A stretch of DNA of 64,000 bases from Synechococcus sp. (GCA_047285805.1 JBJBCN010000002.1:1216001-1280000); one strand, 5' to 3'. Counted from the stretch's first letter, positions 38,046 to 64,000 are shown. Program-made: numbers and translations. The notes: generated from the letters alone by a model not told the origin.

Positions 38046-39242
38046 TCAAGCCATAGGCACAGGCAAGGCGCGGCCGCGCTCCTGGCGGGCCCGTTGATAT
38101 CGGCTCCAGCTGTGCTCAATCACCGCCTCCATGCGGGCGCGGAAGCGCGCGGGACTGAAGCCTTCCGCCCATTGCCGGAGTTGTTCGGCAGGGAGTTGCT
38201 GCCAGAGCCGCTGCTGCTCAAAGGTCTCCAGGGCAGCCACCAGCGAGCTGAGCTCTTGATCCGGGAACAGCAGGCCAGTGGGCTGGCGATCGCCCCGCTG
38301 GATGCAGCGGACGGTGTCCAGCAATCCGCCCTGACCCAAGGCAATCACCGGAGCCCCGGCGGCCATCGCCTCCACGGGGGCAATACCGAAGTCCTCAAGC
38401 CCGGCGTAGACGTAGGCGCGGCAACGGCTCAGCCAGGCGTTGACATCGTCCTCGGGAAGGCGGCCCAGCAGCCGAACATTGGGACCGGCCATGGCCTGCA
38501 ACCGCACACGCTCGGGGCCATCACCAATCACCACCAAGGGAAGACCGGTGCGGTTGAACGCCTCCACAACGAGATCGACCCGCTTGTAAGGCACCAGCCG
38601 GCAGAGGCAGAGGTAGACGTCATCGCGAGGCTGATCCCAACGAAAGCGATCGACGTCAACCGGCGGGTGAACAACGGTGGACTCCCGCCCCCAGTAGCGG
38701 GCGATGCGTGAGGCCGTGAAACGGGAATTCGCCAGCAACTGATCCGGACGCTGGCCGCTAAGCACATCCCATTGGCGCAGTTGATGCAACTGCGCGCGAA
38801 TCAAGGGACCGAGGCCGCGCCGGGCCAGGGAGGACTGGCGCAGGTAGGCATGCATCTGGTCCCAGGCGTAACGCACGGGGGTGTGGACGTAGCTCAGATG
38901 GCACTGATCGGGGCCGGTCAACACCCCCTTGGCCACCAGGTGATTGCTGCTGATCACTAAGGGATAGCCCGTCAGATCGAGCTGCTCGATCGCCATCGGC
39001 AGCAGCGGCAGGTACTGCTGGACATGGCTTACGCCAAAAGGCAGTCGCTGGACAAACGAGCTGGTGATCGAGCGACCCGTCAGCCAACTTCCGCGGCGAC
39101 GACTCTCCCCATCCACCAAGGCAAAGAGCTGAGGCTGCTGCAGGAGGTCATCCAACTCCTGGACCACCAGTTCAGCCCCCCCCACCGACCGGGGGGTAAA
39201 CCACTCGTGCACCAGGGCGATCGGCCCGATTCCAGGAAGCAT
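38046..39242 (-). CDS. GT4 glycosyltransferase
   Basis: GGAE, RLVPYKR and EDFGIAPVEAMA. Confidence 0.93.
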   Translation of the reverse strand: MLPGIGPIALVHEWFTPRSVGGAELVVQELDDLLQQPQLFALVDGESRRRGSWLTGRSITSSFVQRLPFGVSHVQQYLPLLPMAIEQLDLTGYPLVISSNHLVAKGVLTGPDQCHLSYVHTPVRYAWDQMHAYLRQSSLARRGLGPLIRAQLHQLRQWDVLSGQRPDQLLANSRFTASRIARYWGRESTVVHPPVDVDRFRWDQPRDDVYLCLCRLVPYKRVDLVVEAFNRTGLPLVVIGDGPERVRLQAMAGPNVRLLGRLPEDDVNAWLSRCRAYVYAGLEDFGIAPVEAMAAGAPVIALGQGGLLDTVRCIQRGDRQPTGLLFPDQELSSLVAALETFEQQRLWQQLPAEQLRQWAEGFSPARFRARMEAVIEHSWSRYQRARQERGRALPVPMA

Positions 39243-39357
39243 GGCTCGCAGCCTAAGGGCGTTCCTTGAACTTTGATTGCCCGTCAGGTCACGAAAGTTC
39301 TCAGCTGATTGCCCTCAGACCACGAACTCTGAATCCTGAGGGAACTGCGTCTGAGCC

Positions 39358-39600
39358 ATGGCCATCCGCGAGCTACTGGAAGACGAGCTGAAGACGCCCT
39401 CCATTGGCACAACCGATTGCTTTAGCTGGCACGCCACGTCCGTCGGCATCGCGGCGCTGTGGACCGCCGGTCAGGCGCCCACACCTCTGCCTTACGACGA
39501 CGCCCTCAAAGAAGGGCTCGAAGTGGGCCTCGATCTCAGCCGCGAAGAACGGGAATTTCACCAAGTCAGCCAAGGGCTGGTCCTGGTCTTCCACAGCTGA
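39358..39600 (+). CDS. Conserved cyanobacterial hypothetical protein
   Basis: Host-like codon usage; ends GLDLSREEREFHQV..GLVLVFHS. Confidence 0.75.
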   Translation: MAIRELLEDELKTPSIGTTDCFSWHATSVGIAALWTAGQAPTPLPYDDALKEGLEVGLDLSREEREFHQVSQGLVLVFHS

Positions 39601-39889
39601 TCAATAACAACGGAGAGGGTGTTTGTCGATTTCATGCTCTGACGCACCTCAGCGAACCAACACGAACTTATTTTCCGAAATCGTCGGCAAACACCCTGCT
39701 ACCATTTCGCGACAGTCCACGAACGCTTGCGAACGACCCTGAGCGACCCATCTCACGACGGAAATCGGTCTGGAGCATTTTGAGTCGTGAGTAATCAGGA
39801 AGGTTCCGCAAGGCATAAAAAGGCAGAGCACCGATGAGTGCCCTGCCAACAGAGAGTTCTGAGGTATTTAGGTCCCCCACCCATCGGGG

Positions 39890-40087
39890 TCATCTGGATG
39901 CCATGCGGTCTGCCATCCATTTGGTGACCTCCTGTTCGTTCCAGACGACCGTGCGGGAACCCAATTGGATCTGCTTCGGGAAGGTTCCGTCCCTCATGCG
40001 GTCATAGATGGAGGTCTTGCCCATCCCCGTCATCTGAAGCACCTCTGAGATGCGGAGGAAGCGGGGTGCAGTGACTTGCTTAGGCAT
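39890..40087 (-). CDS. alpA: AlpA-family regulator/excisionase
   Basis: FLRISEVLQMTGMGKTSIY...FPKQIQLGSRTVVW. Confidence 0.92.
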   Translation of the reverse strand: MPKQVTAPRFLRISEVLQMTGMGKTSIYDRMRDGTFPKQIQLGSRTVVWNEQEVTKWMADRMASR

Positions 40088-40185
40088 CAGACCGACACCT
40101 CCTCTGGATCAAACAGGAAGTCGGTGAAACGTCCGCCAGTCACAACGGGTGCCGGTTCAGGTTCCTGGGGGGTGGCATCTCTTGT

Positions 40186-40506
40186 TTATTGTTCGTATAA
40201 GGTCACAGCTTTCTGAAGCCCTTCCCCCCCGTCGCCAGCACCTTCTGCTGCTGCTCCGCGAAGGTGTCGGAGATGTATTTGAGGAAGATCAATCCCAGGA
40301 CAAGATGCTTGTATTCGGCGGCATCCATCTGGGCACAGAGTTTGTCCCCTGATGCCCAGAGCACTGCCTTGAAGCCCTTGGCGAGTGGTTCCTTCTTCTT
40401 TCTTGGGTTGCTCGTCTTCGCCTAAGCGGACAGATGCCAGCAACGCATCCAGGTCGGCAGGTGCTTGGACTACGCCTTGAGCGAGAGGGACAACGGGATT
40501 TGTCAT
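40186..40506 (-). pseudogene. hsdM: Truncated, frameshifted type I R-M methylase (HsdM N-terminus)
   Basis: An alternative minus frame reads FKAVLWASGDKLCAQMDAAEYKHLVLGLIFLKYISDTF. Confidence 0.8.
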
Positions 40507-41320
40507 TTACTTATTTGATAAGTCATGAAATACCTATGAGGGCAGATCTTTAATAATCCAAACTGGTGGCGAAGAGACGAAGGAATTTCGATTTGTCCCT
40601 GGTCAAATCATTATCCATCCGTCTTCTATGCTTAATTGTGTTGCACCGGTTTTGAGTGTTGTCCGCCACGTATGTGTCGGCTTGATTGAGAGCGATGTAA
40701 AAGCAACTGACGATCTTTCAAAGTTATTCGATATTGATACAGGTGCCCGAGTTTTGTTATCCCTCGACAGCACACTATTACAGGTTGGTTTGATCAGACT
40801 TGGGTTAAGTATGATCGGCGCCAAAGCGCCCGAAGCATTGCTGAAAGCTGCAGATTCAGACTTGGCTGAAATTCACGTAGCCCATTTTCAGCATTGGGAG
40901 ATCAAAGACGAAAGAATGACGATTTAAGAGCACAGAATAGAGTGTTTCAAGCACTCGAGGACATCTCAGCAGAAGTCAGAGCAGAAGCGGCGACTATCAT
41001 CGTTTAATCATGCGAAGCGGAAGATGTTAAAGACATGCGCTCATCAGAGAATCAATCGAAGCAGACACTCAGGTAAGCCAGAATACAGCGGCGGGGCCGA
41101 CGAAACTCGAAGCAATCAACAGCATCTAAAGCATAGAAAAAGTAAAATCGACAGAAACAGATGAGTCAACTCAAGCAGTATTCAATGTAGCGATGAATAT
41201 TCTAAGCTGAGATTCATAGGAACAACAAGAATGCAGAAAGCCAAGAAGATAATTCAAAAGGAACCGGTCACCATGGAGAGAATTAAGTCAATAACACAAT
41301 CAGAGGCGCGACCTACCAAA

Positions 41321-41337
41321 CTGATAAGAAATGGATA
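41321..41337 (+). promoter_or_regulatory. CTGATAAGAAATGGATA motif upstream of fciA
   Basis: 16/17 identical to the copy at 44962-44978. Confidence 0.6.
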
Positions 41338-41438
41338 CGAACAAGAGAAAAAGTAATCTCTCAGCAAAATGCAAAATATTAAGCTTGTCACGCACAAGCC
41401 CAGGATAACAATAGAGTATATAAATACGGAGAAGAAGT

Positions 41439-42470
41439 TTGCGAAAAAAACGATCTCGAAATTATGTGTTCTCGGATACGCTTGAGATGGAAGAGTTTTG
41501 CAAAGCACATTTTGAGGAATATCACTCAACATCCAGCTTCGGATGCAATGTAACTCAGTTGAGCACAGGTCTTCTCGAAACAAAGACAACTTGCTCACCA
41601 ATTCAAGATGTACATCTTGAGATTTTCAACTCTAACCAAACGTTACTCTATGAGGAAGAAGCGAACACAAAGTCAGTATCATTCTGCTGGCTTGATAGAT
41701 TGAGTGCTAATGACAAGGCACCACTGACAATAATCAGTGGACACCAAATGACAAGCAATAGCATTGCAGGCTTCAACCGGATAAACAAAACAGGTGGAAA
41801 TATCTGGGATATCATTGGCGCAAATGAAAAGCTCTGCTGCATGAGCTTAAAATGGAATATATTGCAAAAGAGAATCAACAAGTTAAATGCATTTAATGCC
41901 TATGCAAGGCTTGAGGAATGCATCGGCATTGACTCAGATGATGATCCGAGCGTACAGCTCAAAGAGTTATTTAACAACCATTTTTCTGGCAAGTCATCCA
42001 CGAATACAAACTCTTTTTACGATCTAGCAATCATATTCTTAGACAACGAAGACAGTGAATCAACACATGATTTTCATCGATGTGAGTCTACAGACCTAGT
42101 AGAGGATATGGTCAAACTAATTCACGAGGATAGAGCTGGTAGGCCTCCAATAACACTTGATGAAATCACTGAATACCTCAATTCAAGTACAGACTCACTG
42201 AATAGAGCATGCCAGAGAATGTTTAATATGGGTGTGCTTGAGCTTGTCAGAAGAGTACGAATAGAACAGACCCGTAAGTTTTTTTTGAATCCACATTCCA
42301 CAATAGGACTCAAGGAATTTACAAAAAAAAGAGTAGCACTTTACTATGGCTTTAAAGACTGGAAAAAGTTTGAGATGTCTTACGCTCTATATTTCGGGGA
42401 AACTCCTAGTCAAACAATAGATCGGTCAAATAAGACTTTGTATTCATTTAACGCACGGCCTGGAGATTGA
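41439..42470 (+). CDS. fciA: AraC-family regulator FciA of the CA4 island
   Basis: C-terminal AraC HTH (...YGF...YFGETPSQT); first of two tandem AraC genes next to a phycobilin lyase. Confidence 0.85.
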   Translation: MRKKRSRNYVFSDTLEMEEFCKAHFEEYHSTSSFGCNVTQLSTGLLETKTTCSPIQDVHLEIFNSNQTLLYEEEANTKSVSFCWLDRLSANDKAPLTIISGHQMTSNSIAGFNRINKTGGNIWDIIGANEKLCCMSLKWNILQKRINKLNAFNAYARLEECIGIDSDDDPSVQLKELFNNHFSGKSSTNTNSFYDLAIIFLDNEDSESTHDFHRCESTDLVEDMVKLIHEDRAGRPPITLDEITEYLNSSTDSLNRACQRMFNMGVLELVRRVRIEQTRKFFLNPHSTIGLKEFTKKRVALYYGFKDWKKFEMSYALYFGETPSQTIDRSNKTLYSFNARPGD

Positions 42471-42473
42471 TAC

Positions 42474-43439
42474 ATGAAAAAATCCATTGAATATAGTGAT
42501 CCACTAGAACTTTCTGAAGAGCTTGCAAAGCTTGGTCAGCTAACGAAAATAACGCAATTAGAAGGCGGCAGTGGTTTATATACCATGCAAGCAGCAAGTG
42601 CAAATAAAGTTGCCCTGGCGGAAATATCTGCAAACAAGACATTATTGTACGAAGGGTGGGGCAATGGGATAACTATTGATTTCAATTGGATTACACCGAA
42701 AGAAAGTAATCAAGTCACCTTTGGTTTTTGTGATGGATTTCAGATGACCAAGAATAGTCTGGCTGGGTTTGGCACCATTAATTCAGTGCCAGGTAATGCA
42801 TGGGGAAAATATGGCAGTGAATGCTCGAGTACTGGTTGCATGATTGAAAAGAAGTTCCTACTTGAATTATTAGAGAGTTGCAAAGCATATGATGGACTCG
42901 AACGACTCACTGGTGATCAAGGTCTTCATTGTAATAATAAAGCTCTAAACCAGCTTAAGCAATTATCTGCGAGAGAAGTATCGTCAGGTATTCGGGACCC
43001 ACAAAAGTATTTTGATCTGGTGATCGCATGCCTTGAAGAACCAATGAATGAGCAAAGTGGTCAGGAAAAAAGACACGTCGATGAATTGAGAGAAATTATA
43101 AATCTTGCACACAGCGAAAGCGCAAGGGAATCCCCTCTATCGTTATCAGAAGTATGCCGATATATAAATACAAGCCAAGCATCTTTGTATCGGATATGTC
43201 AGGAATACTTTGGCATGGGAATTATAGAATTGATGACACATATTAGACTAGAAGAATCCAGGAGAATCATGCTCAACCAAGAAGCGCGTCAAAAACTAAG
43301 GTTGCATTCGATTCGAGATATTGCGATTAGATATGGATTCAGACATCAAGGAAGATATGCAAGGCGCTATTATACTGCATTTGGAGAACTTCCCAGTCAA
43401 ACAATAGAAAGGTCGAGAAGATATAGATTACCAATATAG
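42474..43439 (+). CDS. fciB: AraC-family regulator FciB of the CA4 island
   Basis: SIRDIAIRYGFRHQGRYARRYYTAFGELPSQT; starts 3 bp after the fciA stop. Confidence 0.85.
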   Translation: MKKSIEYSDPLELSEELAKLGQLTKITQLEGGSGLYTMQAASANKVALAEISANKTLLYEGWGNGITIDFNWITPKESNQVTFGFCDGFQMTKNSLAGFGTINSVPGNAWGKYGSECSSTGCMIEKKFLLELLESCKAYDGLERLTGDQGLHCNNKALNQLKQLSAREVSSGIRDPQKYFDLVIACLEEPMNEQSGQEKRHVDELREIINLAHSESARESPLSLSEVCRYINTSQASLYRICQEYFGMGIIELMTHIRLEESRRIMLNQEARQKLRLHSIRDIAIRYGFRHQGRYARRYYTAFGELPSQTIERSRRYRLPI

Positions 43440-43464
43440 GTGCCTTGCAGCCAGAGAGAATGTT

Positions 43465-44658
43465 CTACAGCTCACGTAAGACTTCCGCGCATGTCCATCG
43501 CAGTGGCTCCCACGTGGATTTTAAAAGTAGTTGTTCAATATCACTACGACATTCCATTAGACCTAGAGTTAAACATCCCCAAGTCGCAGCTATTTTTGAT
43601 TTTGCATACTGCGGAGCTGGCTCCAATAATGATTCCTTTATTATGAAAGATAGTTCTTTTAAGCCGAGTTGAGACACCAAGCAATTTACCTGATAGTGAA
43701 TACCATAATCAGAGCCATGATTTTCCCAAATAGACTTGATTGCATCAGTAACAGTTGAAGCCGGCCAACTCAATAAGGTCTTTGCAGCAAAGTACTGGCG
43801 CTCTTCATCTCTATGCTTGAGGAGATCGCAAACTTTTTCTAAATCAAGTGATGCATCATATGTCTGCATAAAACATAGATTCCGAGAATCGTCCCGCAAA
43901 ATTTGATTGATTAATATTCTTTGGGATTTAGTTTTAATTTTAGGAGTAATCTTGAACGCACTTTTAGCTCTCAACGGCATTGACACCGCTGCTTTCGAAA
44001 GACTTGACAACAGAGAAGGATCTCCAGCATCACCAATATCAATGACGGACGAACGTCTATTTATGACATTCAAATCTTTGAGATGATTTTGAAGGATATG
44101 CAATTTATCCTGGCAGTCTTCAACCCTTATTGAATAAGCTATTGATGCGCCATTAACCAAAATATTTGGATTGCTCTCTTGCTCGTGAATGATGCCAGTA
44201 CACTCATGCAACTCCAAACGAGTGAAGCATTGAATGGCGACACGCTTGAGTGCATCGGAGCCATTTTGAATAATGTTCAAAAGAGATGATTTAAACTGAG
44301 CGTCAAGTGGTATACCAAATTTAATTAGCGTGTCCACAGAATTAACAATCGTCTGCTCGTCACTACTATGCATAGCTTCATAAATGGTTGGCAGAGTACT
44401 AAGGTCGCGACGACGCCCTAGCGCTTCAATAGATTTACGACGTGTAATGGAATCGTAGATATTATTTCTATCCCCGGTAGCCGCTACAACTAATGCATCC
44501 AGAGAATCTCGTGAAGAACAAGCTCCCAACCGTGTTGCAGCTATATATTTGATGCCAGGATTATCAAGAGTATTAATGTTTTGTGAAAGCATCTCAATTG
44601 CTTGCTGTTCACTCATCCATGAGAAAAGATTATCAAATCGTTGTGAACTTGGCACCAT
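43465..44658 (-). CDS. mpeW: E/F-clan HEAT-repeat phycoerythrin-II bilin lyase, MpeW-like
   Basis: 397 aa with RFDNLF, Y318-G319 and K353. Gly319 is the non-isomerase signature (recalled from MpeQ/MpeW work). Convergent with fciB. Confidence 0.72.
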   Translation of the reverse strand: MVPSSQRFDNLFSWMSEQQAIEMLSQNINTLDNPGIKYIAATRLGACSSRDSLDALVVAATGDRNNIYDSITRRKSIEALGRRRDLSTLPTIYEAMHSSDEQTIVNSVDTLIKFGIPLDAQFKSSLLNIIQNGSDALKRVAIQCFTRLELHECTGIIHEQESNPNILVNGASIAYSIRVEDCQDKLHILQNHLKDLNVINRRSSVIDIGDAGDPSLLSSLSKAAVSMPLRAKSAFKITPKIKTKSQRILINQILRDDSRNLCFMQTYDASLDLEKVCDLLKHRDEERQYFAAKTLLSWPASTVTDAIKSIWENHGSDYGIHYQVNCLVSQLGLKELSFIIKESLLEPAPQYAKSKIAATWGCLTLGLMECRSDIEQLLLKSTWEPLRWTCAEVLREL

Positions 44659-44961
44659 GCAACATGCGTATATTCAATATTTAACAGAAAAATCAATTGA
44701 CAAGTCCAATCTGGTAAGAAGTGACCCGCGCGACGGGCAGATTGATAATTAGCGGACATAGACTTTAAGAAGAATAAACCAACATATTCGGCAAGCACAG
44801 CGGGAGCAAGTTGCCTCCGTATTCAAATCACTGTGCAACTAGTAATCGTATAACTAGATACGGCTGAACTATTTATCAAGGACAAGACCTTTTACGAAAA
44901 AGCTACATTTGACATTAAGATTGCTAACAGGGTGCTGAGCTGTCGATAGGCAAAAACAACC

Positions 44962-44999
44962 CTGATAAGAAATGGACACTTGCTGATAAGATGTGGATA
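44962..44999 (+). promoter_or_regulatory. Tandem 17-bp direct repeats (21-bp period) upstream of unk10
   Basis: ctgataagaaatggaca and ctgataagatgtggata. Confidence 0.65.
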
Positions 45000-45014
45000 T
45001 TCCGCTGATGCATC

Positions 45015-45359
45015 ATGTCGCGCGCTGAGTTTATCCGCTTTCTTCAGGTTCTAGAAGAAGACTTGTCATTCAGATCTCTTTTCAAAGAAGCTGAGCCCGA
45101 GGAGATCCTGAAGCTCGCTGATCAACATGGATTTATCTTTTCCGATGAAATAAAAGGGCGTTTTCTTAATCGATGGGCAGGGGTTTACTTCTGCCCATTT
45201 GCCAATGATGTTGGGAGGCTATGCCCCAAGATGGTGCCCGAAGGATTTAGCACTCTCCTCCACTATTCACAGACGACATGCGCAAAAGACGACAAAGTAG
45301 AACGTTTTGAATTCCGGGCTGGAGGCTATTACAAAGGAGTAGAAACTGTAGCTCGATGA
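45015..45359 (+). CDS. unk10: Nif11-like protein Unk10 of the CA4 island
   Basis: Nif11-type N-terminus MSRAEFIRFL...LADQHGFIFSDE; position in the island. Confidence 0.75.
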   Translation: MSRAEFIRFLQVLEEDLSFRSLFKEAEPEEILKLADQHGFIFSDEIKGRFLNRWAGVYFCPFANDVGRLCPKMVPEGFSTLLHYSQTTCAKDDKVERFEFRAGGYYKGVETVAR

Positions 45360-45368
45360 AGGAAACAA

Positions 45369-45548
45369 ATGAAATCAAGAAGCATCTGCTTATCCATCAG
45401 CAAACGCAACCAAGACATGGTGGATGTAATCGACGAATATGCGGACATGCTTGGTATGTCAAAGGCATGTGCCGTGTTCCACATCATCAAGGACTACAAC
45501 CGACTCAAACTCAAAGAACGCATCAGAGAACTGGAAGGTGTCTCATGA
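45369..45548 (+). CDS. Small ribbon-helix-helix protein (59 aa, missed by the ORF track)
   Basis: MKSRSICLSISKRNQDMVDVIDEYADMLGMSKACAVFHIIKDYNRLKLKERIRELEGVS. Confidence 0.7.
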   Translation: MKSRSICLSISKRNQDMVDVIDEYADMLGMSKACAVFHIIKDYNRLKLKERIRELEGVS

Positions 45549-45977
45549 GGCAGTTTCCTTGTTACTTGCAGAGGCAATGACAGAAGTATTCTCGGCAATC
45601 TTAATAATGGCAATCATGGACTCAAGAATAAACCGAGACACAAGCACAACTGCAATTGGAATAAAGATAAGACCAAGAACGCCTAGGAGTTCGGAATATC
45701 CAGAATATGGTTGAGCAATAATCAAAGCAAAAGGAAAACAAATCACCCCCATCACCACAAGGGAGACAGCAAACATTATTAAAAGGAAATAAATTGCGCT
45801 GACAAACTTCCTTAGAACAAAGAAGTTAAATCTAATATCAGTAAATAGTATCAAGAAAAGACCCTTAAATCCAGAGGGAATCGATACAGGAGAAGGACGC
45901 TTATAGGATGCGATTGTGGTCCAAATGGCAACCACAATTCCAACTATACAAGCAATGATTGCAATGCCTTCACTCAC
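45543..45977 (-). CDS. DUF4282-like membrane protein
   Basis: TM helices and ...RFILESMIAIIKIAENT. Confidence 0.7.
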   Translation of the reverse strand: MSEGIAIIACIVGIVVAIWTTIASYKRPSPVSIPSGFKGLFLILFTDIRFNFFVLRKFVSAIYFLLIMFAVSLVVMGVICFPFALIIAQPYSGYSELLGVLGLIFIPIAVVLVSRFILESMIAIIKIAENTSVIASASNKETAS

Positions 45978-46148
45978 AGTTAGTGAATCAAACTCTCTAG
46001 GAACCTAGGAACAAGACTGCTAGGGGGAAAAATACTACAGATTCTTGTAACAAGCAGATTAAGAAATCAATACTAAATCCTAATGAATGAATTTTTTAAT
46101 TCAAACGAAAGCACCAAGAACTCTTATATATCCGTGAAATTAAACCAT

Positions 46149-46481
46149 TTAAGGTGACGATGACCTAGCATACTTAACAAATACGATAAAGCGCAAACCA
46201 GTAATTAGAGCAGACCTTACTTTACTACTATCTAATCTCTTAATAGTGACCATAGAAGACAGAAAGAGTGCTACTAAAGATATTGAAGCGCAAACTCTAT
46301 TCGTTAAGAGGAATGGTTCTCCTTGAATCGCCGCCGAAACAGATTGAAAAGGAACCCCCCACACCAAAAAGTGAGTCACTAGCATCAATAATGGACATAA
46401 AGTCAAAAGGATTAAAGAAAAGTTTTGCATTTTAGTCGTCAAATCTTCCATAATTTTAGAAAATAGCACTTCGCATGTCAA
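46149..46481 (-). CDS. Small membrane protein, paralog of 46590..46937
   Basis: VALFLSSMVTIKRLDSSKVRSAL. Confidence 0.55.
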   Translation of the reverse strand: MTCEVLFSKIMEDLTTKMQNFSLILLTLCPLLMLVTHFLVWGVPFQSVSAAIQGEPFLLTNRVCASISLVALFLSSMVTIKRLDSSKVRSALITGLRFIVFVKYARSSSP

Positions 46482-46589
46482 GTCTATTAATTAGGTGAAA
46501 TTAGTATTCCAAAAAACGCATCAATAGTCCGAATAATTCCTGAGTTCAAATCCAATACAAAACAAGAGAAATCAAGATAATAAAGAGAT

Positions 46590-46937
46590 TTACCAATTCG
46601 CTAACGGATTAGAACTCACCTTCAAATAAAAGACAAAGTTTGCAGCACAATAAGCAGTTAGTAGAGCGGACCTTATCTTTTCACTATCCAATCTATTGAC
46701 AGTTACTATAGAAGACAATACAAGTGCCACAAAAGACATCAAGGTGATGATATAATTTGACAAGTTCATTAGTTCGATTACTTTATTGGCAACAAAAGAA
46801 TCAGGATAATGGATAATTGCGCTCCATATCACATTGTAAGAAAGTATCGTGAAAAGCACTTGAGCAATCAAAATCGCAAGCGCGCAATTTTGCATTTTCT
46901 TGCCATGATTAAGGAAATCGTACCAAATGAAATTCAC
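46590..46937 (-). CDS. Small membrane protein
   Basis: VALVLSSIVTVNRLDSEKIRSAL. Confidence 0.6.
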   Translation of the reverse strand: MNFIWYDFLNHGKKMQNCALAILIAQVLFTILSYNVIWSAIIHYPDSFVANKVIELMNLSNYIITLMSFVALVLSSIVTVNRLDSEKIRSALLTAYCAANFVFYLKVSSNPLANW

Positions 46938-47006
46938 GTGTCAATGCTTGCCGTTCTTGTTTAAATAAACGCAGGCACAAACAAACTAAAATATTGGGGG
47001 TGCAAT

Positions 47007-47144
47007 ATGAACGGGATATTTGATTCAGTAGAGATGAAGATGCTGGAAGAACTTTCTAAGAGAGGTGCTGTTGTCGGAAAGAAGTATTCCGATAAAAAGA
47101 AGTATCTGAAAGAACTGGTCCGTCGTCTTTACCTGAACCTCTGA
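47007..47144 (+). CDS. Small basic hypothetical protein (45 aa)
   Basis: MNGIFDSVEMKMLEELSKRGAVVGKKYSDKKKYLKELVRRLYLNL. Confidence 0.4.
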   Translation: MNGIFDSVEMKMLEELSKRGAVVGKKYSDKKKYLKELVRRLYLNL

Positions 47145-47405
47145 TTCGTTCGTGAATCACCAGTTGGTTATACGAAAATCGGTTTTTATATGAGACCCAA
47201 AGTCCAATCTATATGCGGCACCTTTCGGTCAAGCAATATCAAAATCAACTTTCCGATTACAGGTCTCAAAAAAAATCCCCGCAGGAAAACTGGTTCCTGT
47301 GGGGTCGAATACATAGAAGATGAGGGTCGAACAACGGACAACCCTTACCTTCTCAGTGAATAACAGCAGGAGTTGCTGCCCTGCTGTTTTTTTTTGGGTC
47401 AGAAC

Positions 47406-48026
47406 TCAACCGAAACCCACACCAGAGGTTTCTGTGGTCTCCTCTTCTTGCTGTCCAAAACGGAAAGCATTTAGTTCGTCCTTGCGTCGTCTCCAACCAT
47501 GTAGGAGAGCAACTCGTTCATTCGGATAGTGCTCCAGTGATTTCTCACGGGTCTGAAGTTCGAGAAGACACTTTTCCTTTGACTGCTTCCGAAGTTCGTC
47601 CTTGCGTTGTTGGACTCGGACTTTCCACTCGTCAGTGGTTTCATCTCCCTTCTTCGTGAGGGAGGGAGCAGGAGACGGACCACCTTCCTCTCCTAACCAT
47701 TCATACCCGTCATAACGATGACCAAACTGCTTAGCAGCAAGTGTGATTGTGTCGTCTTCCCACTGCTGGGTTTCTTCGTTCCAGACCTGATAAAGTTCTT
47801 CCAACTTTTTCATAGGTGTAATACGAAGACGACTGAATATAGGAACACACTTCTCTTGGTCTTCGTCGTAAATAAACGGAAGGTGATAAGCAATAAAGTC
47901 CTGAATCTCCTCTAAGGTCATATATGGAGAACGAACCCAACGAATATCCATATGGTCGGAGTAGTCAAGGAAGTAATACTCCTTGTTGGGGTCAAAGGTT
48001 GTTTCACCAGAAATAAGTTGAGACAT
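47406..48026 (-). CDS. Hypothetical element protein
   Basis: 206-aa ORF with a clear AGGAGG RBS, downstream of alpA. Confidence 0.75.
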   Translation of the reverse strand: MSQLISGETTFDPNKEYYFLDYSDHMDIRWVRSPYMTLEEIQDFIAYHLPFIYDEDQEKCVPIFSRLRITPMKKLEELYQVWNEETQQWEDDTITLAAKQFGHRYDGYEWLGEEGGPSPAPSLTKKGDETTDEWKVRVQQRKDELRKQSKEKCLLELQTREKSLEHYPNERVALLHGWRRRKDELNAFRFGQQEEETTETSGVGFG

Positions 48027-48119
48027 AAGGATTCCTCCTATAAAGTGAATGAAAATATGTTTGTTCTCGGTGTTCTCTCACCGATAGGGTTTTGAGTCAG
48101 TTTATTGACTATCGATTAC

Positions 48120-48311
48120 TCAACCAAGAGCAGCACATACCTTTTGAGCACACCAATCTTCGACCTGGGACTTCACCCAGACGACAGAACGAGCGCCCAA
48201 AGGAACTTGCTTTGGAAAATCTCCCTGCTCCATTAGTCGGTAAATGGAGGATTTAGAGAGACAAGTAATTTCTTTGACATGTTTCAGTCGCAGAAAATGT
48301 GAATGGACCAT
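48120..48311 (-). CDS. alpA: AlpA-family regulator/excisionase
   Basis: FLRLKHVKEITCLSKSSIY...FPKQVPLGARSVVW. Confidence 0.92.
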   Translation of the reverse strand: MVHSHFLRLKHVKEITCLSKSSIYRLMEQGDFPKQVPLGARSVVWVKSQVEDWCAQKVCAALG

Positions 48312-48580
48312 GTGTTTGCGTGTTTCATAAGGTTTATTGATTACAACAATCTCGGAGTTAGATTAGTCAGGTAGGGGGCGTCTGACTTAGAAGACCCTTA
48401 TCGGGTTAGTGATTATTTGATTTTGAGGCAGTCGGTCGGTTTGCTCTGTTCGTTTATCTTGACTACTATAACCCTGGGGACTCGACCCGTCGGTTCCCAG
48501 TGGACACTTTGAGCAACTAACCTTCCATTCATACCAGAAGGTCTCACGAAGTCCTACTAACTCAAATACACCTCAAATCG

Positions 48581-49876
48581 TCAGACCTTCATGCCCTGAG
48601 CAAGCAAGGCATCACACCAAGCAACCATGAACAATCTTCGTTCTTTTAGGAAGTCATGTCGGTCATATATGCCCTGAATCCGGTCCTTCACCTTCCATCC
48701 TTGTTGGAGTCGAATGACCTTCTCATCGAATCCCAGTTCCTTCTGCCCATAGGTCAGAACACAAGTCCGAACTCCATGCCCCACGAAGTCCCCCTTGTAT
48801 CCGAGGTCGATGAAGTGGTTGTTGATGGATGACGGGTTGATGTGCCTGGACTGAGTGCGAGGAGAGGCAAAGACGAACTCGGTTCCTCCATTCACCTTCT
48901 CCATCTCCCAGAGCAGGTCCTTGATGGGTTGAGTCAGAGGCACCAGGTGGTTCTTCTCTCCGTCATCCCAGGTCTTCATACGGGTCGCAGGAACCTTCCA
49001 GAGTTCCTCTTCCATATCAACCTCCTCCCACTTCATCCCTGAAATCGCACCTACCCGCAGACCAGTCATGAAGGTCAGCAAGCAAGCACCACGGGTTGAG
49101 AACTGACCATTCGGTTCGTTGCGGTCGAACACCTCAAAGAACTCAGGGAGTTGTTCCCAGAAGGGGAACGGATGGTGCTGGACCTGATGGGTCTTCTTGT
49201 CCTTGGGACTGAACACCGAACGCATCAACGGGTTCTGTCCGTCCCTTATCCATCCCTTATTGACCGCATTCTCAAAGACCCCTTTCAGGACCATCTGCTG
49301 TTTGCTTGCTGAGGAGGGTGCCTTCTTCCTGACTCTCCCCAGGTATTCGGTCATTAGTTCCCGAGTGGTCTTCCCACCTGGGTGCCTGTATTCCCAGGAG
49401 AAGTGCTCCACGGGTGTCTTCGCACCGAACTCAGGCAGAACCTGATTCCAGAGGAGGTTCCTGTATTCCCTCTTCCCCCTCTCGTTTGCCGAGGTCCAGT
49501 CAGAGAGAAAGGACTCACATGCCTGTTCCAGGGTTGGAGAGGTCGTCTTCTGAACCAGGAGTGCCTGCTGCTCTCTCTTTCTCTCCCTGGGGTCTTTGCC
49601 GTTCTCTCTGCTCCATGTCCTGATTGCGGACCATTCCTCCTTTGCCTCTCTCAGAGACCACTTCCCAGTTCCCTTCCCATAAGGACCTATTCGGACCTCA
49701 ATCCACTTCCCTCCGTTGCTGGGACTACGGGGAGGGAACCGAGTGATGCCGATAAAGGACTTCCCACCCCCCTTGCTGATTGGTTCGACGACCACATACA
49801 ACGAATCACCGCAACTCTTCTTCTGTCGTTTAGTCCCAGGGGGTAGAGCACGGACTTGGGAGTCAGTAAGAGGCAT
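48581..49876 (-). CDS. P4-like tyrosine integrase, intact
   Basis: MPLTDSQVR arm-binding N-terminus, TGLRVG, RMK, HGVR and GIYD. Confidence 0.93.
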   Translation of the reverse strand: MPLTDSQVRALPPGTKRQKKSCGDSLYVVVEPISKGGGKSFIGITRFPPRSPSNGGKWIEVRIGPYGKGTGKWSLREAKEEWSAIRTWSRENGKDPRERKREQQALLVQKTTSPTLEQACESFLSDWTSANERGKREYRNLLWNQVLPEFGAKTPVEHFSWEYRHPGGKTTRELMTEYLGRVRKKAPSSASKQQMVLKGVFENAVNKGWIRDGQNPLMRSVFSPKDKKTHQVQHHPFPFWEQLPEFFEVFDRNEPNGQFSTRGACLLTFMTGLRVGAISGMKWEEVDMEEELWKVPATRMKTWDDGEKNHLVPLTQPIKDLLWEMEKVNGGTEFVFASPRTQSRHINPSSINNHFIDLGYKGDFVGHGVRTCVLTYGQKELGFDEKVIRLQQGWKVKDRIQGIYDRHDFLKERRLFMVAWCDALLAQGMKV

Positions 49877-49885
49877 TTCAGGATT

Positions 49886-49946
49886 CCCCCAACACGGATA
49901 TTTTCCCCCAACACACCCCCTTTATCCCCCAACATTTCCCCCAACA
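49886..49946. repeat. Four cccccaaca repeats (integrase arm-type sites)
   Basis: The repeats lie between the integrase start and the tRNA att site. Confidence 0.6.
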
Positions 49947-50061
49947 CTTTTTCGGAAAACCCTGGTGTCTCATGGGACGAACCAGGACCATGAACCACTA
50001 AGAAAGTCCCTCACCGCAACGGGTTTGGGACATTCAGAGACCTTTCAGGACTTTTTCAGAA

Positions 50062-50146
50062 CGGAGAGGGTGGGATTCGAACCCACGGAAGGTTGCCCTT
50101 CAAACGATTTCGAGTCGTTCGCTTTCGACCACTCAGCCACCTCTCC
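50062..50146 (-). tRNA. tRNA-Ser(CGA)
   Basis: Cloverleaf with aacga-ctCGAaa-tcgtt and a long variable arm. Confidence 0.97.
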
Positions 50147-50182
50147 AGGCGACCCGGCCAGTGTACGGATCAAGCCGCCAGC

Positions 50183-51505
50183 TCAGCTCTGGTGCCATCC
50201 GCTGGTGGAACCGGCAGTGGGCCACCAGACTTGGCACTCGCGCAAGACCCGGACCTCTCGGACGCTGGGAACAAACCCCAACCAGACCGCATCACCGCCA
50301 CAGCCACAGCCAACTCCACCAGACCTGCCGATCGGGCAGCACCCACCAACGCTGCCGCCCTGCCCGCAGCGATAGGCCTCGGCTATCGGGGCTAAGGCGA
50401 CGCACGGCCAGCCCCGGGCTCTGCAGCTGCTGCCTCGGCAAGAAGTGGTCGACCGTCGTGTGGGCCAGGCCCGCCCAGAAGGGGTTGGCCTCCTGCGGCA
50501 ACGGATCGAGCAACAACAGCCAATCGAAGCGGGGCACCCCCAGCCCCTGGGCCAATTGCGCGGCACGGCCTCAACTGCTCGCGTCCGCCTTCAGGCTTAC
50601 CAGAGCCGCCCGAACCTGGAGACGGAGGACCAGCCATTGGCGCGGAATCTGGCGCACCAACAGCAATTGATCCCGGCTCTGCTCCCAGCGGCGCAATCCC
50701 ACCGCCAGAGCCAGAAGCCGCCAGCCCCAGCAGCGGGGTAGCCAGCATTGCAGGCGCTCCTCCGGGGGCCGGCCGAGAGAATCAAGCCACCCGTGGCGGC
50801 CCGCTCAGCTGAAAGCCCACATCCAACAGCCAGCGGGGGCGCAGCAGCAGCAGGAGCACCTCCAGGGGAAGGGAGCGGCGGCCGCGCTCTTTAAGAACGA
50901 ACGCCAGGGCACTCATCAAGAGGGCGCAGACCATCGACGCCTGGGCGCCCGCTAAAAAGTCCAATCAGCCCCATCGCACCGAAGGCGGAAAGCCAGCGGA
51001 TGAGCGCTGGAGCGCGGCGACTCAGCAGCAGCACAACGCCCAGCAGCACGCTCAAGTGAAAGCCGCTAGCGGCCAGGGCATGGGAGAGGCTCGCCGCCCG
51101 AAAGACACCTCGAAGCGAGGCAGGCAACGGCACCATCGCCTGCCCCAAGACCAGCGCGGCCAGCAGTCCCACAGGTTCCTTCCCACCGGCCCTGCTACAG
51201 CTCCGAGCGGTCGCGGAAGCGCAGGTGCACCCGTCCCTGGGGCACATCGGCCAGGGCCTGATAAGCCGTGCCGATCGCTCGCGGATCGTGCAGCAGCCGG
51301 GCTTCCAGCTGAACGAGCTACGTCTGCTGGTGAGGGGGAATCCGGTGAACCGGATCAGCCGCTTGCCGGGTGGGGCTGGCTGGGACGGCCCCACCCGGCA
51401 AGCAGCAGCACGGCCAGCAGCCGGGGGAGGCGCCGTCGAGGGGGGGTAGGACTCTAGGAACAGGACCACTAAGGCCCCACCAAGAGCAGCAACGGAAAAC
51501 CTCAC
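50183..51505 (-). pseudogene. comEC: Competence protein ComEC, fragmented
   Basis: GLLAALVLG...FRAASLSHALAASGFHL is present, but the pieces fall in different frames and total only ~1.3 kb. Confidence 0.8.
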
Positions 51506-52423: not shown

Positions 52424-53256
52424 TGTTGTTGCCGGACCTGGGTTTACTGGGGTCTCGAAAGCTAGAGCAGGTTGGAATGGGTAGTTCACAAGTCGTGACC
52501 CAACTCGCTCAAAGGACTTTCAACCCAACCGAGTTGGGTAGAGGTTGGGTCGATTCTCGCTAATCGCCGACCAACCCAACTATCTGGGAGGAAGGCGGAG
52601 ACACAAAGGCAGACCCCCGTGCAGCCAAGCGAAGGCAAAACGCGGACATCAAGCGCTCCCGAAAGGGTCCTGAAGGCACGCTGGGCGCTTCACCTCAAGC
52701 AGTCCAGAAGAGCGCCCATGGGGGTTTGTCGCCCATGCACATAGCTAATACTGCTTCAGAAACTGGGGCCGGAAACCCTCTGAAGCTGAGGCTTTTCCAA
52801 TTCACAGCAATGGTCGAGAGTCAGCAAAGATTTCGTAGGTCGGTCGAATAGAGCGACTGACCTTCTCTGAGGGCTCTTGAGTTATTTCAAGACTCAGCTT
52901 AGTCGTTGCAAGCTCAACCTCTATAGCCAATTGCCCCAACCGAGCACACAGGAGTTTTTGAGTTCGTGATGATATGTTTGACATGGATATCGTGCAATTG
53001 GCGTAAAGCCATAAATATGGTTTGACGATTGCGCAAAGACTTTACCTATCCAAACATAAGCATATGGTTAGGTGAAGCATTTGCTTGGCTCAGCCTGATT
53101 GGCGGGGGGTTGTGTGGTCCTCTTCTGGGTATGGGCCTCCAGATAAAATAAATCCAACGTGCCAGAGCTAGCAAATCCCATACGTGTATGGAACAAGGCG
53201 AGCAGACGCCACAGCTCAACTCTGTCAAGATTGGAGAGGAAATGCTTCTTGGCTCA

Positions 53257-53646
53257 ATGGCAGCTTTCGACGACAGCACCCCCTTTATGCTCCTGGCCCG
53301 CATCCAAGTGAAGGAGGGACGTGTTGATGAGTACTTGGAGTTGGCACGCGTCACCGATGCCGCAGTTCAAGCGAGCGAACCCGGAATGCTGCACCACACA
53401 TTCGATCAAGATCCAGATGATCCCAAGGGATTCGTCTGGTCAGAGGTCTATGCGAACGATGCAGCCTTTGCCGCTCATGTCTCAAACCCTCCCGTTCAGG
53501 AGTATCTGCAGAAGCATGCAGAACTTGGCGATGGCTTCAGCGTTGAGGTCTATGGAACTGTCGGCGACGAGTGCAAGGCTCTGATGGAGTCATTCGGACT
53601 ACCGCTACGAATCTTCCGAACGAAGCTGGGTTACAGCAGGGTCTGA
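53257..53646 (+). CDS. ABM-family (putative quinol monooxygenase) protein
   Basis: SEPGMLHHTF, FVWSEVY and AFAAH. Confidence 0.85.
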   Translation: MAAFDDSTPFMLLARIQVKEGRVDEYLELARVTDAAVQASEPGMLHHTFDQDPDDPKGFVWSEVYANDAAFAAHVSNPPVQEYLQKHAELGDGFSVEVYGTVGDECKALMESFGLPLRIFRTKLGYSRV

Positions 53647-53879
53647 TTGAACTGCAAACAGCACCTGGATACTGTGAACTGAGCAAAGCCATAAACATTG
53701 AGGACACGCTCGAGCTTTGCTCGCCATGATCCGAGAGGGAGGAGGTCATTCCGCTCATCCTCCTCAACTCTCCCCGCTACTGAGCAGTGGGGCAGTGGGC
53801 TGTATATCGGCAAAAACGAAGCGTGTAAATCGCTGGTTCGCCATGCGCAATTGTCACCACATTGCCTCGTCAATGTCTT

Positions 53880-54134
53880 CTACTGAGGCAAAGATGTCTT
53901 TGGCTCTCTGTAGCTGCCATTGCAGTGGACGACGATTTCATCAAGCAGGTATTTGGAGTTCTCCTAGATATGAGACTTGAAGCAATGGTTGAAGTACTTA
54001 GCCTCTTCTTCAACAGCGTGCATTCTTTGATTGATCTAGATAACGTTCACCATTCCAATCGCAATATAGATGGTACCAGCCGTTGCCAGCACAGGGTAGA
54101 GGTGGGCGTTGATGAGATCACGTGCGTTGTTCAT
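53880..54134 (-). pseudogene. Small membrane-anchored Cys-pair protein with two internal TAG stops
   Basis: MNNARDLINAHLYPVLAT...VI*INQR...YFNHCFKSHI*ENS...VHCNGS. Confidence 0.55.
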
Positions 54135-54687
54135 AGTTTTTTTTGTAGGCGTAATCTTTTTCTAGCCAGCTTCGGGGGATCGACCCATCTCCGTCTGTCG
54201 GGTATGACGATCAGAGGTGGATCAGCAGAAAACTGCAATAACGGGCTTACCGGCCCCCGCTTGATGGATCGCAAGCCGTAAACAGGTGTTTCTACTGATG
54301 CCAGTTCCTGATGGCCCAACTATTACGGGGTCCGACACCTAGAAGGCCTGCCTTCATTCTGACGGGTTAGGTGCCGAGGGGGCGGTGGGGACACCGCCCT
54401 TCTCGGTGCCAGCTTTCCTGGCGAAGATGGGGAGCAAATGGAATGCAATCCATGCAGTACCAATTCGCTAATCCAAGTTAGCGCCACAAATCCGATGCGC
54501 TCTGTCGTTTCTCGGCCTCAGGGAATGCCAGGCTTCAAGAAGCCACCCGTGAATTGACAGTTGCTGCAGACATGAGTGGCATTCAGGAGAAAGCTGCCTT
54601 TTCGAAATGAATACATGCATCCCACTTCCAGTAATCACTACCATCATCGCCTGCATCTTTGCCATACACCTGCTTGCGAATGAGCAC

Positions 54688-54894
54688 ATGAACCCAATCC
54701 CGCGGAAACTAAAGAAAGCATTATCATGGTCATTAATTGCATTTGTCCTATTAGTAAATACTGGCACTTTTGCTGGATTTTATGTCAGCAAGCTGATTGG
54801 CTGGTGGGAGGATGATTGGCAGACAGTTGCCTTATCTATAATTGCGGGCATAGGTTCATGGTATTTCCTTTTTCTAGCATTTGGACTGCTATAG
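54688..54894 (+). CDS. Small two-TM hypothetical protein
   Basis: MNPIPRKLKK followed by two hydrophobic helices. Confidence 0.5.
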   Translation: MNPIPRKLKKALSWSLIAFVLLVNTGTFAGFYVSKLIGWWEDDWQTVALSIIAGIGSWYFLFLAFGLL

Positions 54895-55709
54895 TCAATG
54901 GCAGGTAAGTCAGGACAGGTTTAAGCAGTATCCAGCTACCTGAGGATCATGTAAGCAGCGCTTCACCCCGCTCTTATCAAGTGACTGAGAAATCACCAGC
55001 GCACGACTTACTTCAGATAGGCGACATCGAACCTGTGGCTAACGGCCGCCCTTCTCAATGGGTTGGGTTGCTTCCACCCAACACTGGTTTCGAATCTCGT
55101 AGACCAGCACAGAGCCGACGCAGTCGCTGTGAGCGCAAACGTCTGTGGCTAGTCATCCCATGGAGGTTTTTCTTGGCTGGTCGCTGGTGGGTCATTTACG
55201 GCTCGCTGCTTTGAGAACCTCAGGCCGAGTGCTAAGTCCCACACACAACGCCAAAGGGGTAACCAAAGACACGTCACCGCTTAAGCCCTGACTCCACTAT
55301 TGACAGGAGACCTTCGAATGGGTTTCAAGGGAGAACCTGAGGCGGGGTGGAACCCGCCTCTTTTTTATGTCTCCCTGGCCACTGATGGTTTGCTTCAGCA
55401 GACGCTGCTGCCAATCCTGCACCAGCTAGTCCAGGCGGGTGAGCACAGCTGGGTTCAATGGAAGCCGCACAGTAACCGGCCAATGCCTAGCTGATGCCGC
55501 CAAACGGATACCCTCTATGAGACAACTGGAGTCCTTGTGAGTACGCGAAGCGGCTACGGAGATTTGGACAGGAGCCTCGCTAGAGCCAAGCGAGACAAAT
55601 GAAGCAGCCTGGTAGTGGATGCAATCGTTATGTGTTCTCAACCCGGGGAAGCAAAGTCCTGTGGTTGCCTTGTTGTGGGTAGATAGCGGAAGTATCAACC
55701 ACAAGCGCA

Positions 55710-57235: not shown

Positions 57236-57248
57236 TGGATTCAGAATA

Positions 57249-58016: not shown

Positions 58017-58026
58017 AATCCTTCAC

Positions 58027-58045
58027 AGGAATGGTAATCGTTCCT
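58027..58045 (-). promoter_or_regulatory. Fur/Zur-like operator
   Basis: Inverted repeat AGGAATG-GTAAT-CGTTCCT; core aatggtaatcgtt resembles AATGATAATCATT. It lies between a -10-like CATAAT and the start codon. Confidence 0.6.
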
Positions 58046-58159
58046 ATTATGGCCTAGAGTGATGATGAGCGTCTAGGGCGCAACCGCTGAGTGGCTATGA
58101 ATTTGAACAGTCCATAACGCCAACTCTCGCTAACGTTTAGGCGGTAGGGGTTTTTCGTT

Positions 58160-58656: not shown

Positions 58657-58736
58657 AATTCATCTTGCTAGAGGGTATAAGCATGCGCGCAAGGCAATAA
58701 CTAAAGATTAAATCTTTAGGTGGGACTTTCGGCTGA

Positions 58737-60110
<1,374 letters not shown>

Positions 60111-60118
60111 GCAGCCAG

Positions 60119-63261: not shown

Positions 63262-63342
63262 TGCCTGCCCACATGGGCTCTTGAGCCAACTCCTTTTCTG
63301 ACGAGAATCATTAGAAGATAAGAATGAGATGAGATGATCCTC

Positions 63343-63999: not shown

Positions 64000-64000
64000 T

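Follow-up and report, generated by a model that had tools for sequence, protein, structure and literature searches.

A type IV chromatic acclimation island of the B form in an integrase-bearing insert at tRNA-Ser(CGA) of a Synechococcus sp.

We analysed a 64,000-nt stretch of the genome of Synechococcus sp. (GCA_047285805.1 JBJBCN010000002.1:1216001-1280000), referred to below as the window; positions are in the numbering of the whole window. Next to an intact tRNA-Ser(CGA) gene the window holds an insert of 10,451 bp, which encodes a tyrosine integrase and two AlpA proteins and carries fciA, fciB, mpeW and unk10, the genes of an island for type IV chromatic acclimation (CA4) of the B form (CA4-B). 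Transfer RNA genes were called with ARAGORN, and gene families were assigned with Pfam, NCBIfam and PHROGs profiles. Lyase and integrase queries were run against 400 other genomes of the family from 64 genera (for the integrase, the genus count includes the own genome), and the left flank of the insert was searched in 44 other genomes of the host genus. Statements credited to published work refer to those passages of the cited papers that bear on the point.

An insert at the 3′ end of tRNA-Ser(CGA)

The tRNA-Ser(CGA) gene lies on the minus strand at 50061-50147. Its 3′ end is contained in the 13-nt core AACGGAGAGGGTG at 50060-50072 (attR), and the same 13-mer recurs exactly at 39609-39621 (attL), with no third exact copy (0 mismatches) within the window. 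Twelve nucleotides of the core come from the tRNA 3′ end, to which one further nucleotide is added. By chance, a given 13-mer would be expected to recur exactly about 0.002 times in 128 kb (both strands). The GC content drops from about 0.62-0.67 outside to 0.35-0.50 within the insert, and no internal att-like site that would split the insert in two was found at up to 2-3 mismatches.

Among the genomes of the host genus searched with the left flank, the closest is G125 (94% nucleotide identity), in which this flank runs into tRNA-Ser(CGA) without an insert, that is, into an empty attB site. A three-way alignment gave the order flank-core-tRNA in G125, flank-core-element at the left junction of the window and element-core-tRNA at the right. 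The 13-bp duplication of the tRNA-Ser 3′ end, which a preliminary description of this DNA had taken as the bracket of a mobile element, is thereby borne out by the exact repeat, the called tRNA and the G125 alignment, and the empty site that it had suggested looking for in relatives is present in the nearest of them. These results confirm a true insertion at the tRNA-Ser(CGA) 3′ end, with the tRNA gene intact.

The preliminary description had also named a chimeric assembly as a way in which its proposal could fail. A low-GC insert misjoined to a high-GC chromosome would give the sharp GC change seen at both borders. Yet in contigs from three sequencing runs the stretch 38500-51000 is unbroken and shows 0 differences, which argues against a chimeric assembly even though the assembly may itself have been built from these runs, so that they are not independent of it, and both borders match the G125 attB and the 13-bp repeat to the base. 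An assembly artefact is thus very improbable. Two sequences were considered as excision products and rejected. The metagenome contig X4, which joins 39563 to 50060, has a shorter side of 27 letters and the G125-type base at 39564 and was read as the empty site of a relative. The strain's own contig C1, as a putative excised form, lacks the core and does not resemble the element in sequence; it is unplaced, 6,832 bp long with 44.8% GC, matches the start of contig C2 alone (181 bp) and has no terminal overlap.

The integrase gene (48581-49876, minus strand) codes for 431 aa, with an arm-binding domain (PF13356) at the N-terminus and a catalytic one (PF00589). Adjoining it is AlpA gene 2 (48120-48311, minus strand; 63 aa; PF05930, E 3.4e-21; phrog_2790), likely an excisionase or regulator, and at the tRNA-distal end of the insert lies AlpA gene 1 (39890-40087, minus strand; 65 aa; PF05930, E 2.6e-21; PHROG excisionase/regulator). 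The two AlpA proteins are 40-44% identical. An alignment of five integrases shows no variation at R274, H367, R370 and Y404 and two states at position 398, with W in two sequences and H in the other three; we take these residues to be the catalytic set of the tyrosine recombinase. Alternation of W and H at position 398 is known for this family. Four arm-type repeats, (T/A)TCCCCCAACA, lie in the spacer that separates the start of the integrase gene from the tRNA, at about 49884-49947 (plus strand). The earlier proposal of an intact integrase with arm-type repeats and two AlpA genes is upheld by the domain matches, the conserved residues and the repeats.

Related elements occupy the same site elsewhere. 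The integrase query matched 33 of the 400 other genomes at E<=1e-40, in 16 of the 64 genera, and of 29 relatives' loci that were fetched, 22 have tRNA-Ser(CGA) beside the integrase gene; distant relatives of the integrase (31-32% identity) occur in small-genome genera. In five siblings studied in detail (G009, G098, G158, G268 and G370) the order tRNA-integrase-AlpA is identical to that in the window, and AlpA 2 is 63-79% identical to the integrase-adjacent AlpA in four of the five and 46% in G009. In all six elements, the window's included, the spacer between integrase start and tRNA is 183-184 bp and holds four 10-nt repeats at the same four positions. The repeat sequence is TCCCCCAACA here and in G268, TCCACCCACA in G009, G370 and G158, and TCCAACAACA in G098. 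The G370 integrase, which goes with repeats of the other kind, is 93% identical to that of the window over residues 134-431 (298 aa) and 74-75% over the arm-binding part. The repeat sequence thus co-varies with the arm-binding part of the integrase, a pattern predicted for functional arm-type sites. The C-terminal part of the integrase is 93% identical to the copy in a g5 genome (G370), while the flanking glycosyltransferase is only 64% identical to that of another g5 genome, G330.

The segment 48055-50155, comprising integrase, AlpA and arm repeats, is the sole part that the window element has in common with its siblings. Two same-site inserts within the host genus have the same 13-bp core at their ends: the G009 insert (L099:2925-L100:2877; about 19.95 kb; integrase 70-71% identical), with a type I restriction-modification (R-M) system (hsdM/S/R) and a DUF3987 protein, and the G098 insert (L101:2904-11709; 8.8 kb; integrase 48-50%), with an Mrr/helicase fusion, a DUF1651 protein and a resolvase. 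The cargo of both appears to serve defence. A resolvase is also carried by the G268 element. A tblastn search with the sibling-element proteins found no remnant of the DUF3987 gene in the window element, and a search of viral contigs with MpeW, the integrase and the five-integrase alignment found nothing related except one integrase of 23% identity. Taken together, these features suggest that the insert is a site-specific integrative element of a family that targets the tRNA-Ser(CGA) 3′ end in marine and brackish picocyanobacteria. In the low-GC left end of the window (1-5 kb), a tyrosine-recombinase frame split by a stop (3728-4117; PF00589, in two pieces) is probably a decayed integrase of another island.

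The CA4-B cargo and its origin

The cargo block starts on the left with a truncated pseudogene of mpeU (40772-41231, plus strand), found by tblastn with the protein at the mpeU position of G281: three high-scoring segment pairs in different frames, with 58-73% identity, cover residues 155-307 of 309. It is followed by fciA (41439-42470, plus strand; 343 aa) and fciB (42474-43439, plus strand; 321 aa), both encoding AraC-type regulators (PF12833), by the CpeY/MpeY-family lyase gene mpeW (43465-44658, minus strand; 397 aa) and by unk10 (45015-45359, plus strand; 114 aa; Nif11 domain, PF07862), which forms the right end of the block. The names mpeU, mpeW, mpeQ and cpeZ were assigned from the 3dB rod-region order published in part of Grebert et al. 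(PMC8995045) and not by a tool. Only 25 bp separate fciB from mpeW, leaving no room for fciC, and no ribbon-helix-helix match was found among the small open reading frames (ORFs) of the element in Pfam and PHROGs.

A repeat family (D2) with the motif CTGATAAGA-N3-GGATA has one copy upstream of fciA, the 18-nt CTGATAAGAAATGGATAC at 41321-41338 (plus strand), and two upstream of unk10, in the intergenic region between the divergent mpeW and unk10 genes (44962-45000, plus strand), 21 bp apart. The tandem pair is kept in 12/12 5.1-type islands, the window's included, and the fciA copy in the three checked; both 5.3-type islands have a single copy with up to 4 substitutions. This motif is a candidate FciA/FciB binding site, and the copy before fciA a candidate operator.

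Over 4.6 kb (40767-45360) the window is colinear, at 79-85% nucleotide identity, with the rod regions of G281, G200 and G254. In G281 the corresponding block begins inside the gene at the mpeU position upstream of fciA and ends 1 base past the unk10 stop, 9 bp before the convergent gene at the cpeZ position. Amino acid identities to G281 are 83% for FciA, 84% for FciB, 91% for MpeW and 97% for Unk10; across the 11 g5 genomes with the island they are 75-85% for fciA/fciB (fciB 79-85%) and 88-97% for unk10. All four genes are full length, and their ratios of nonsynonymous to synonymous divergence (dN/dS) from G281, 0.10 for fciA, 0.10 for fciB, 0.22 for mpeW and 0.04 for unk10, reveal purifying selection. 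The suggestion that a complete CA4 island is present therefore stands.

The preliminary description had left open whether the lyase is MpeZ or MpeW. The lyase is 79-91% identical to its counterpart in the 11 g5 genomes, 47-49% to that in two g23 genomes, 42-44% to the single lyase of genomes like G125 and 35-38% to an MpeZ tier encoded far from the rod region. In the trees, the lyase-family one of which was a quick tree with support from SH-aLRT (the Shimodaira-Hasegawa-like approximate likelihood ratio test) only, it falls within the g5 (5.1-type) clade, which is split from the g23 clade with full support. These tiers and trees resolve it as MpeW and rule out a CA4-A (mpeZ) assignment. A second family lyase is encoded about 7 kb from the g5 counterpart, in the rod region, in 10 of the 11 genomes, and about 5.8 kb from it in G216, where the locus is cut by a contig end. 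The neighbours and spacing of fciA, fciB, the opposite-strand lyase and unk10 are as here in 13/13 genomes (11 g5 and two g23). Since a dead piece of a rod-region gene, mpeU, stands at the border of the block, the move was from rod region to element and not the reverse. On sequence comparison, the cargo is shown to be a CA4-B island cut from the middle of a 5.1-type 3dB rod region.

A position in the middle of the rod region is described as constant for CA4-B in passages of Grebert et al. 2022 (PMC8995045) and Dufour et al. 2024 (PMC10904595). In agreement with this, the island lies beside the rod-region lyase in 13/13 other genomes that have it. A metagenome scan with MpeW found seven loci, two of them too short to judge; all five with readable flanks have the canonical order mpeU, fciA, fciB, mpeW, unk10, cpeZ, cpeY. 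In the strain studied here, the island is on contig C2 inside the tRNA-Ser insert and the rod region is on C3, which departs from the usual position of CA4-B. The only relevant results of a literature search on mpeW with integrase, CA4-B, and tycheposons with chromatic acclimation, which did not extend to subscription journals and supplements, were the paper of Grebert et al. and its preprint.

The tRNA-Ser(CGA) neighbourhood also holds CA4-A islands in some genomes. In G156 (g37; L235:9046-16188), a complete low-GC CA4-A island lies in the same tRNA-Ser(CGA) slot, in the order glyQ, competence-like gene, tRNA-Ser(CGA), island, orf80, glycosyltransferase; neither integrase nor AlpA (query panel) nor a second core copy was detected in that slot. 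In the g5 genomes G095, G298 and G330, a CA4-A island or its lyase lies just past glyQ, 0.9-5 kb from tRNA-Ser(CGA), and in G310 a CA4-A island abuts tRNA-Ser(GCT). The comparison covered 18 of 22 MpeZ-tier loci, four on short contigs being left out. Judged by position, four of the 18 lie within 10 kb of a single-copy tRNA gene, which is far above chance; three of the four, however, come from a single genus, possibly by common descent. Neither int nor AlpA was found in any of the 18 with the query panel. In the main text of Humily 2013 (PMC3877281) the words tRNA and integrase do not occur. From glyQ on, the window itself becomes a lower-GC variable region (52500-64000) with genes for an ABM monooxygenase, a metallophosphoesterase, CobW-like and metY/metA-like proteins and a GAF protein; this is the spot where the three g5 genomes hold a CA4-A island or mpeZ.

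To the left of the cargo block the insert also holds an ORF of 106 aa (40186-40506, minus strand), which has no family match and of which a 90-bp stretch is 80% identical to the G268 element, and a fragment like an Fe(II)-dependent dioxygenase (40628-40766, plus strand; NF003974 positions 154-199 of 221, E 1e-6), which forms the N-terminal part of a 99-aa ORF and has a 48%-identical paralogous stretch elsewhere in the genome. To its right, all on the minus strand, are a DUF4282 protein of 144 aa (45543-45977; PF14110, E 1.2e-8), which is other cargo, two paralogous small ORFs of 110 and 115 aa (46149-46937; 37% mutual identity, DNA repeat D1, no family match) and an ORF of 206 aa (47406-48026) with a weak PHROG match of unknown function alone.

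The host and its pigment genes

The host genome comprises 2.37 Mb in three contigs, with 60.9% GC. Its genus includes genomes named Vulcanococcus, and V. limneticus is placed in subcluster 5.2 in a passage of PMC8955281; these names support the assignment of the host lineage to subcluster 5.2, as the preliminary description had supposed from the GC-rich sequence. The remark made there that CA4 is not known to have been described in this group agrees with a statement in Humily 2013 (PMC3877281), by which no CA4 strain was reported in subcluster 5.2, and our literature search found no later report. A lyase of the family is encoded in only one of 29 other sampled genomes of the genus, that of G125.

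The window contains no phycobiliprotein gene. All 13 PF00502 matches in the genome fall elsewhere, on C3 and at two sites far away on C2, in line with the earlier remark that no rod genes are near the island. The rod region is at about 111.7-137.1 kb on C3, where it ends at tRNA-Phe, and is colinear with that of G125. Within it, between the phycocyanin genes and pebB/pebA, lies a ferrochelatase gene (hemH; C3:116228-117403, L031:12229-13401). Two genomes of this 5.2 genus, the host (L031/L032) and G125 (L038, C1:1462000-1481999), have mpeBA and a rod region of the phycoerythrin II (PEII) type. In passages of the literature, 5.2 strains are described as lacking phycoerythrin or as type 2 at most, and a limited literature search found no report of PEII in 5.2.

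The preliminary description had advised looking for mpeBA and mpeQ, and both are present in the genome. The mpeY position beside mpeBA (C3:126452-127604, L032:2453-3605) holds a pseudogene that is 38% identical to G125 MpeY and is disrupted by a frameshift and several in-frame stops. A full-length mpeQ-type lyase gene is found away from the rod region, at C2:193031-194242. Its product is 94% identical to the rod lyase of G023 (g23, 5.3-type), a genome that has its own island 7 kb from that lyase, and is sister to the G023 gene in a quick tree; identities are 70-74% to the rod lyases of the other 12 island genomes, 55-60% in the next tier and 48% to G125 MpeY. The gene is carried by a 3,427-bp insert of lower GC (C2:191592-195018, L033:5593-9019), which G125, G098 and G009 lack to the base and which also holds the gene of a tyrosine recombinase of 382 aa (phrog_1, E 1e-27). 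This insert shares only 1,567 bp with G023 (91% nucleotide identity), has no tRNA gene nearby and shows a junction overlap of about 4 bp. By gene content, both enzymes of the published CA4-B scheme, MpeW and MpeQ, are thus encoded, on integrase-linked inserts from different donor types, and the resident mpeY is dead.

Two further loci touch on pigmentation. An unk10-like frame (C2:781676-782017, L186:7677-8018; 46% amino acid identity) has an in-frame stop and lies in a low-GC variable stretch without a sibling counterpart; it may be the trace of an earlier acquisition. A divergent phycobilisome linker (C2:1319660-1320598, L185:7660-8601; 313 aa, PF00427) is encoded in an islet of 43-49% GC outside the rod region; it reaches at most 37-46% identity to the linkers of 10 genomes and has no orthologue in G125, G098 or G009. 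It was considered as an acquired mpeC or mpeE, for which the identity is too low to assign it.

Interpretation and comparison with known systems

We hold it likely, with a probability of roughly 70%, that an integrative element carrying a CA4-B island entered a subcluster 5.2 lineage whose sister, G125, is empty. The element with its cargo would have entered through Int-mediated recombination of attP with the tRNA end, which would regenerate the tRNA. AlpA together with Int could excise it as a circle, and the circle could re-integrate at the same tRNA end in another cell. As no transfer genes were found, passage between cells would depend on outside routes of the kind proposed for tycheposons in part of Hackl et al., namely phage particles, vesicles or the uptake of DNA. 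Under green light, FciA/FciB would raise mpeW and unk10 expression, following the CA4-B model published in PMC10904595, and MpeW would place phycoerythrobilin (PEB) on Cys-83 of alpha-PEII, outcompeting the lyase-isomerase MpeQ, which gives phycourobilin (PUB) in blue light (passages of PMC10904595 and PMC8995045). The host would take its MpeQ from the second, separately acquired integrase-bearing insert, the resident mpeY having decayed. Present-day excision, cell-to-cell transfer and a pigment phenotype are what we infer.

Several observations weigh against this reading, and some of them bear on an alternative in which a single integration left an island that is now immobile, with int and AlpA retained by chance or for another role and CA4 inherited only vertically. 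The insert is present in one genome only. No attB or attP joints occur in the strain's own three-run contigs, although contigs drop rare variants and are uninformative here either way. Genes for replication, packaging and transfer were not found in the element by Pfam, NCBIfam and PHROGs searches of all ORFs, by which weak homologues could be missed. The G156 island, in the same slot without integrase, AlpA or second core, indicates that such cargo does become fixed there. On the other hand, the integrase is full length with its catalytic residues kept, the two cores are identical, the four arm repeats and the integrase-adjacent AlpA gene are intact, and the unselected neighbours, the mpeU and dioxygenase fragments, have decayed, unlike the mobility module. 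We therefore regard a fixed, immobile island as unlikely.

Other adverse points concern how the cargo came to be in the element. The borders of the block are ragged, with the dioxygenase fragment and the mpeU fragment, which would also fit a later insertion into a resident element. The cargo differs by 15-21% in nucleotide sequence from the nearest sampled rod regions (dS 0.23-0.97), so that its capture was not recent or its donor is unsampled. Because the canonical CA4-B island is not beside tRNA-Ser, simple imprecise excision cannot explain the capture. In the five sibling elements there is no fciA, fciB, lyase gene of this kind or unk10, so no second combination of element and CA4 is at hand, and the 13 other genomes and five metagenome loci offer no second instance of CA4-B outside a rod region. 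The data as a whole fit an element-first or a cargo-first order alike. A resident, CA4-free tRNA-Ser element might thus have gained the 4.6-kb rod fragment in place, by illegitimate or homologous recombination, and would then not be a vehicle of CA4. That the mobility module is the sole part common to the siblings, that the block is flanked by unrelated gene fragments and that mpeQ came by a separate route from another donor type would all agree with this, as would the insufficiency of imprecise excision. Yet G125 lacks the whole insert and not the block alone, no internal att-like sites are present and the order of events is not fixed by the data; such a capture in situ seems somewhat less probable even than a fixed island.

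The host antenna is a further adverse point for the entry of a working CA4-B island on an integrative element. Queries with G281 proteins found no mpeC, full mpeU or unk10 in the host rod region, absences that are marks of pigment type 3a in the relevant passage of Grebert et al. (PMC8995045), and part of Humily 2013 (PMC3877281) considers that simple pigment types may have too few genes to acclimate. Since the antenna is otherwise of a simple type, the amplitude of acclimation may be small.

To our knowledge, the patchy spread of CA4 has been ascribed to lateral transfer or to incomplete lineage sorting, and no vehicle of the B form has been known. The locus is a physical example of a B island outside the rod region, together with intact parts for integration and excision, in a subcluster without reported CA4, and is a concrete candidate for a vehicle by which CA4 spreads between lineages. 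The mechanism of CA4-B transposition is stated to be still unknown in a passage of Grebert et al. 2022 (PMC8995045), and according to part of PMC10904595, CA4 strains accounted for over 40% of the marine Synechococcus on the Tara Oceans transect. More tentatively, and with doubt prevailing, a 5.2 lineage with a simple green-light-type antenna may be becoming a chromatic acclimater by modular horizontal assembly in three steps: regulators and mpeW on a still-excisable element from a 5.1-type donor, mpeQ on a second integrase element from a 5.3-type donor, and loss of mpeY. The tRNA-Ser(CGA)/glyQ neighbourhood would, in the same tentative scheme, be a general entry port for CA4 of both types, and the scheme would offer the mechanism, so far missing, for the passage of CA4-B out of and into rod regions. 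Movement of CA4 by Int and AlpA, the minimal set for a simple antenna (fciAB, mpeW, unk10 and mpeQ) and tRNA-Ser(CGA) as a point of entry for light-colour genes are now open to test.

Compared with the CA4-B island of 3dB Synechococcus (PMC3877281, PMC8995045 and PMC10904595), the island is alike in genes, order, strands, spacing and upstream motifs, and it shares the low GC of about 40% given in a passage of Humily (PMC3877281). It differs in place: the known islands are described as mid rod region, whereas this one and the rod region are on separate contigs and the island is housed in the integrase/AlpA element at tRNA-Ser; its partner mpeQ is likewise outside the rod region; and the host belongs to 5.2, the known hosts being of 5.1 or 5.3. 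The island is CA4-B by gene content and descent, and its unusual position is what makes it of interest. Compared with CA4-A (fciA-fciB-fciC-mpeZ and unk10), the likeness is that of a small low-GC island outside the rod region, which in G156 occupies the identical slot. The lyase is of another clade (MpeW 35-38% amino acid identity, FciA/FciB about 48-55%), and the mpeZ-fciB gap of CA4-A is about 670-750 bp and holds fciC, in contrast to 25 bp here.

The element resembles the tycheposons of Prochlorococcus, as described in part of Hackl et al. (bioRxiv 10.1101/2020.12.28.424599), in integration at a tRNA 3′ end with a partial tRNA copy, in a tyrosine recombinase with an excisionase, in niche-adaptive cargo and in a hotspot that holds varied inserts in related genomes. 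Tycheposon-like inserts at tRNA-Phe upstream of rod regions are described in a passage of Grebert 2022 (PMC8995045), and the siblings found here likewise carry resolvases and a type I R-M system. The target, tRNA-Ser(CGA), is outside the seven targets listed for Prochlorococcus and is not tRNA-Phe either. The hallmark primase, helicase and polymerase were not found in the element, although the sibling G009 has a DUF3987 protein; for want of primase and helicase, the element groups with the 'cryptic' integrase/excisionase elements in that part of the Hackl scheme. The vehicle works like a tycheposon but, with no replication genes found, is not one in the strict sense. With P4-type integrase/AlpA islands it has in common the arm-binding domain, matching arm repeats and AlpA beside int (6/6 elements). 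Finally, mismatched types such as WH8016, for which Humily 2013 (PMC3877281) describes a 3a rod region and a degenerate CA4 island, similarly combine a simple rod region with an acquired island. Here, unlike in WH8016, we find a fully intact B-type island, and mpeQ has been gained and mpeY lost; this gain and loss make the present case look like adaptation rather than failed transfer.

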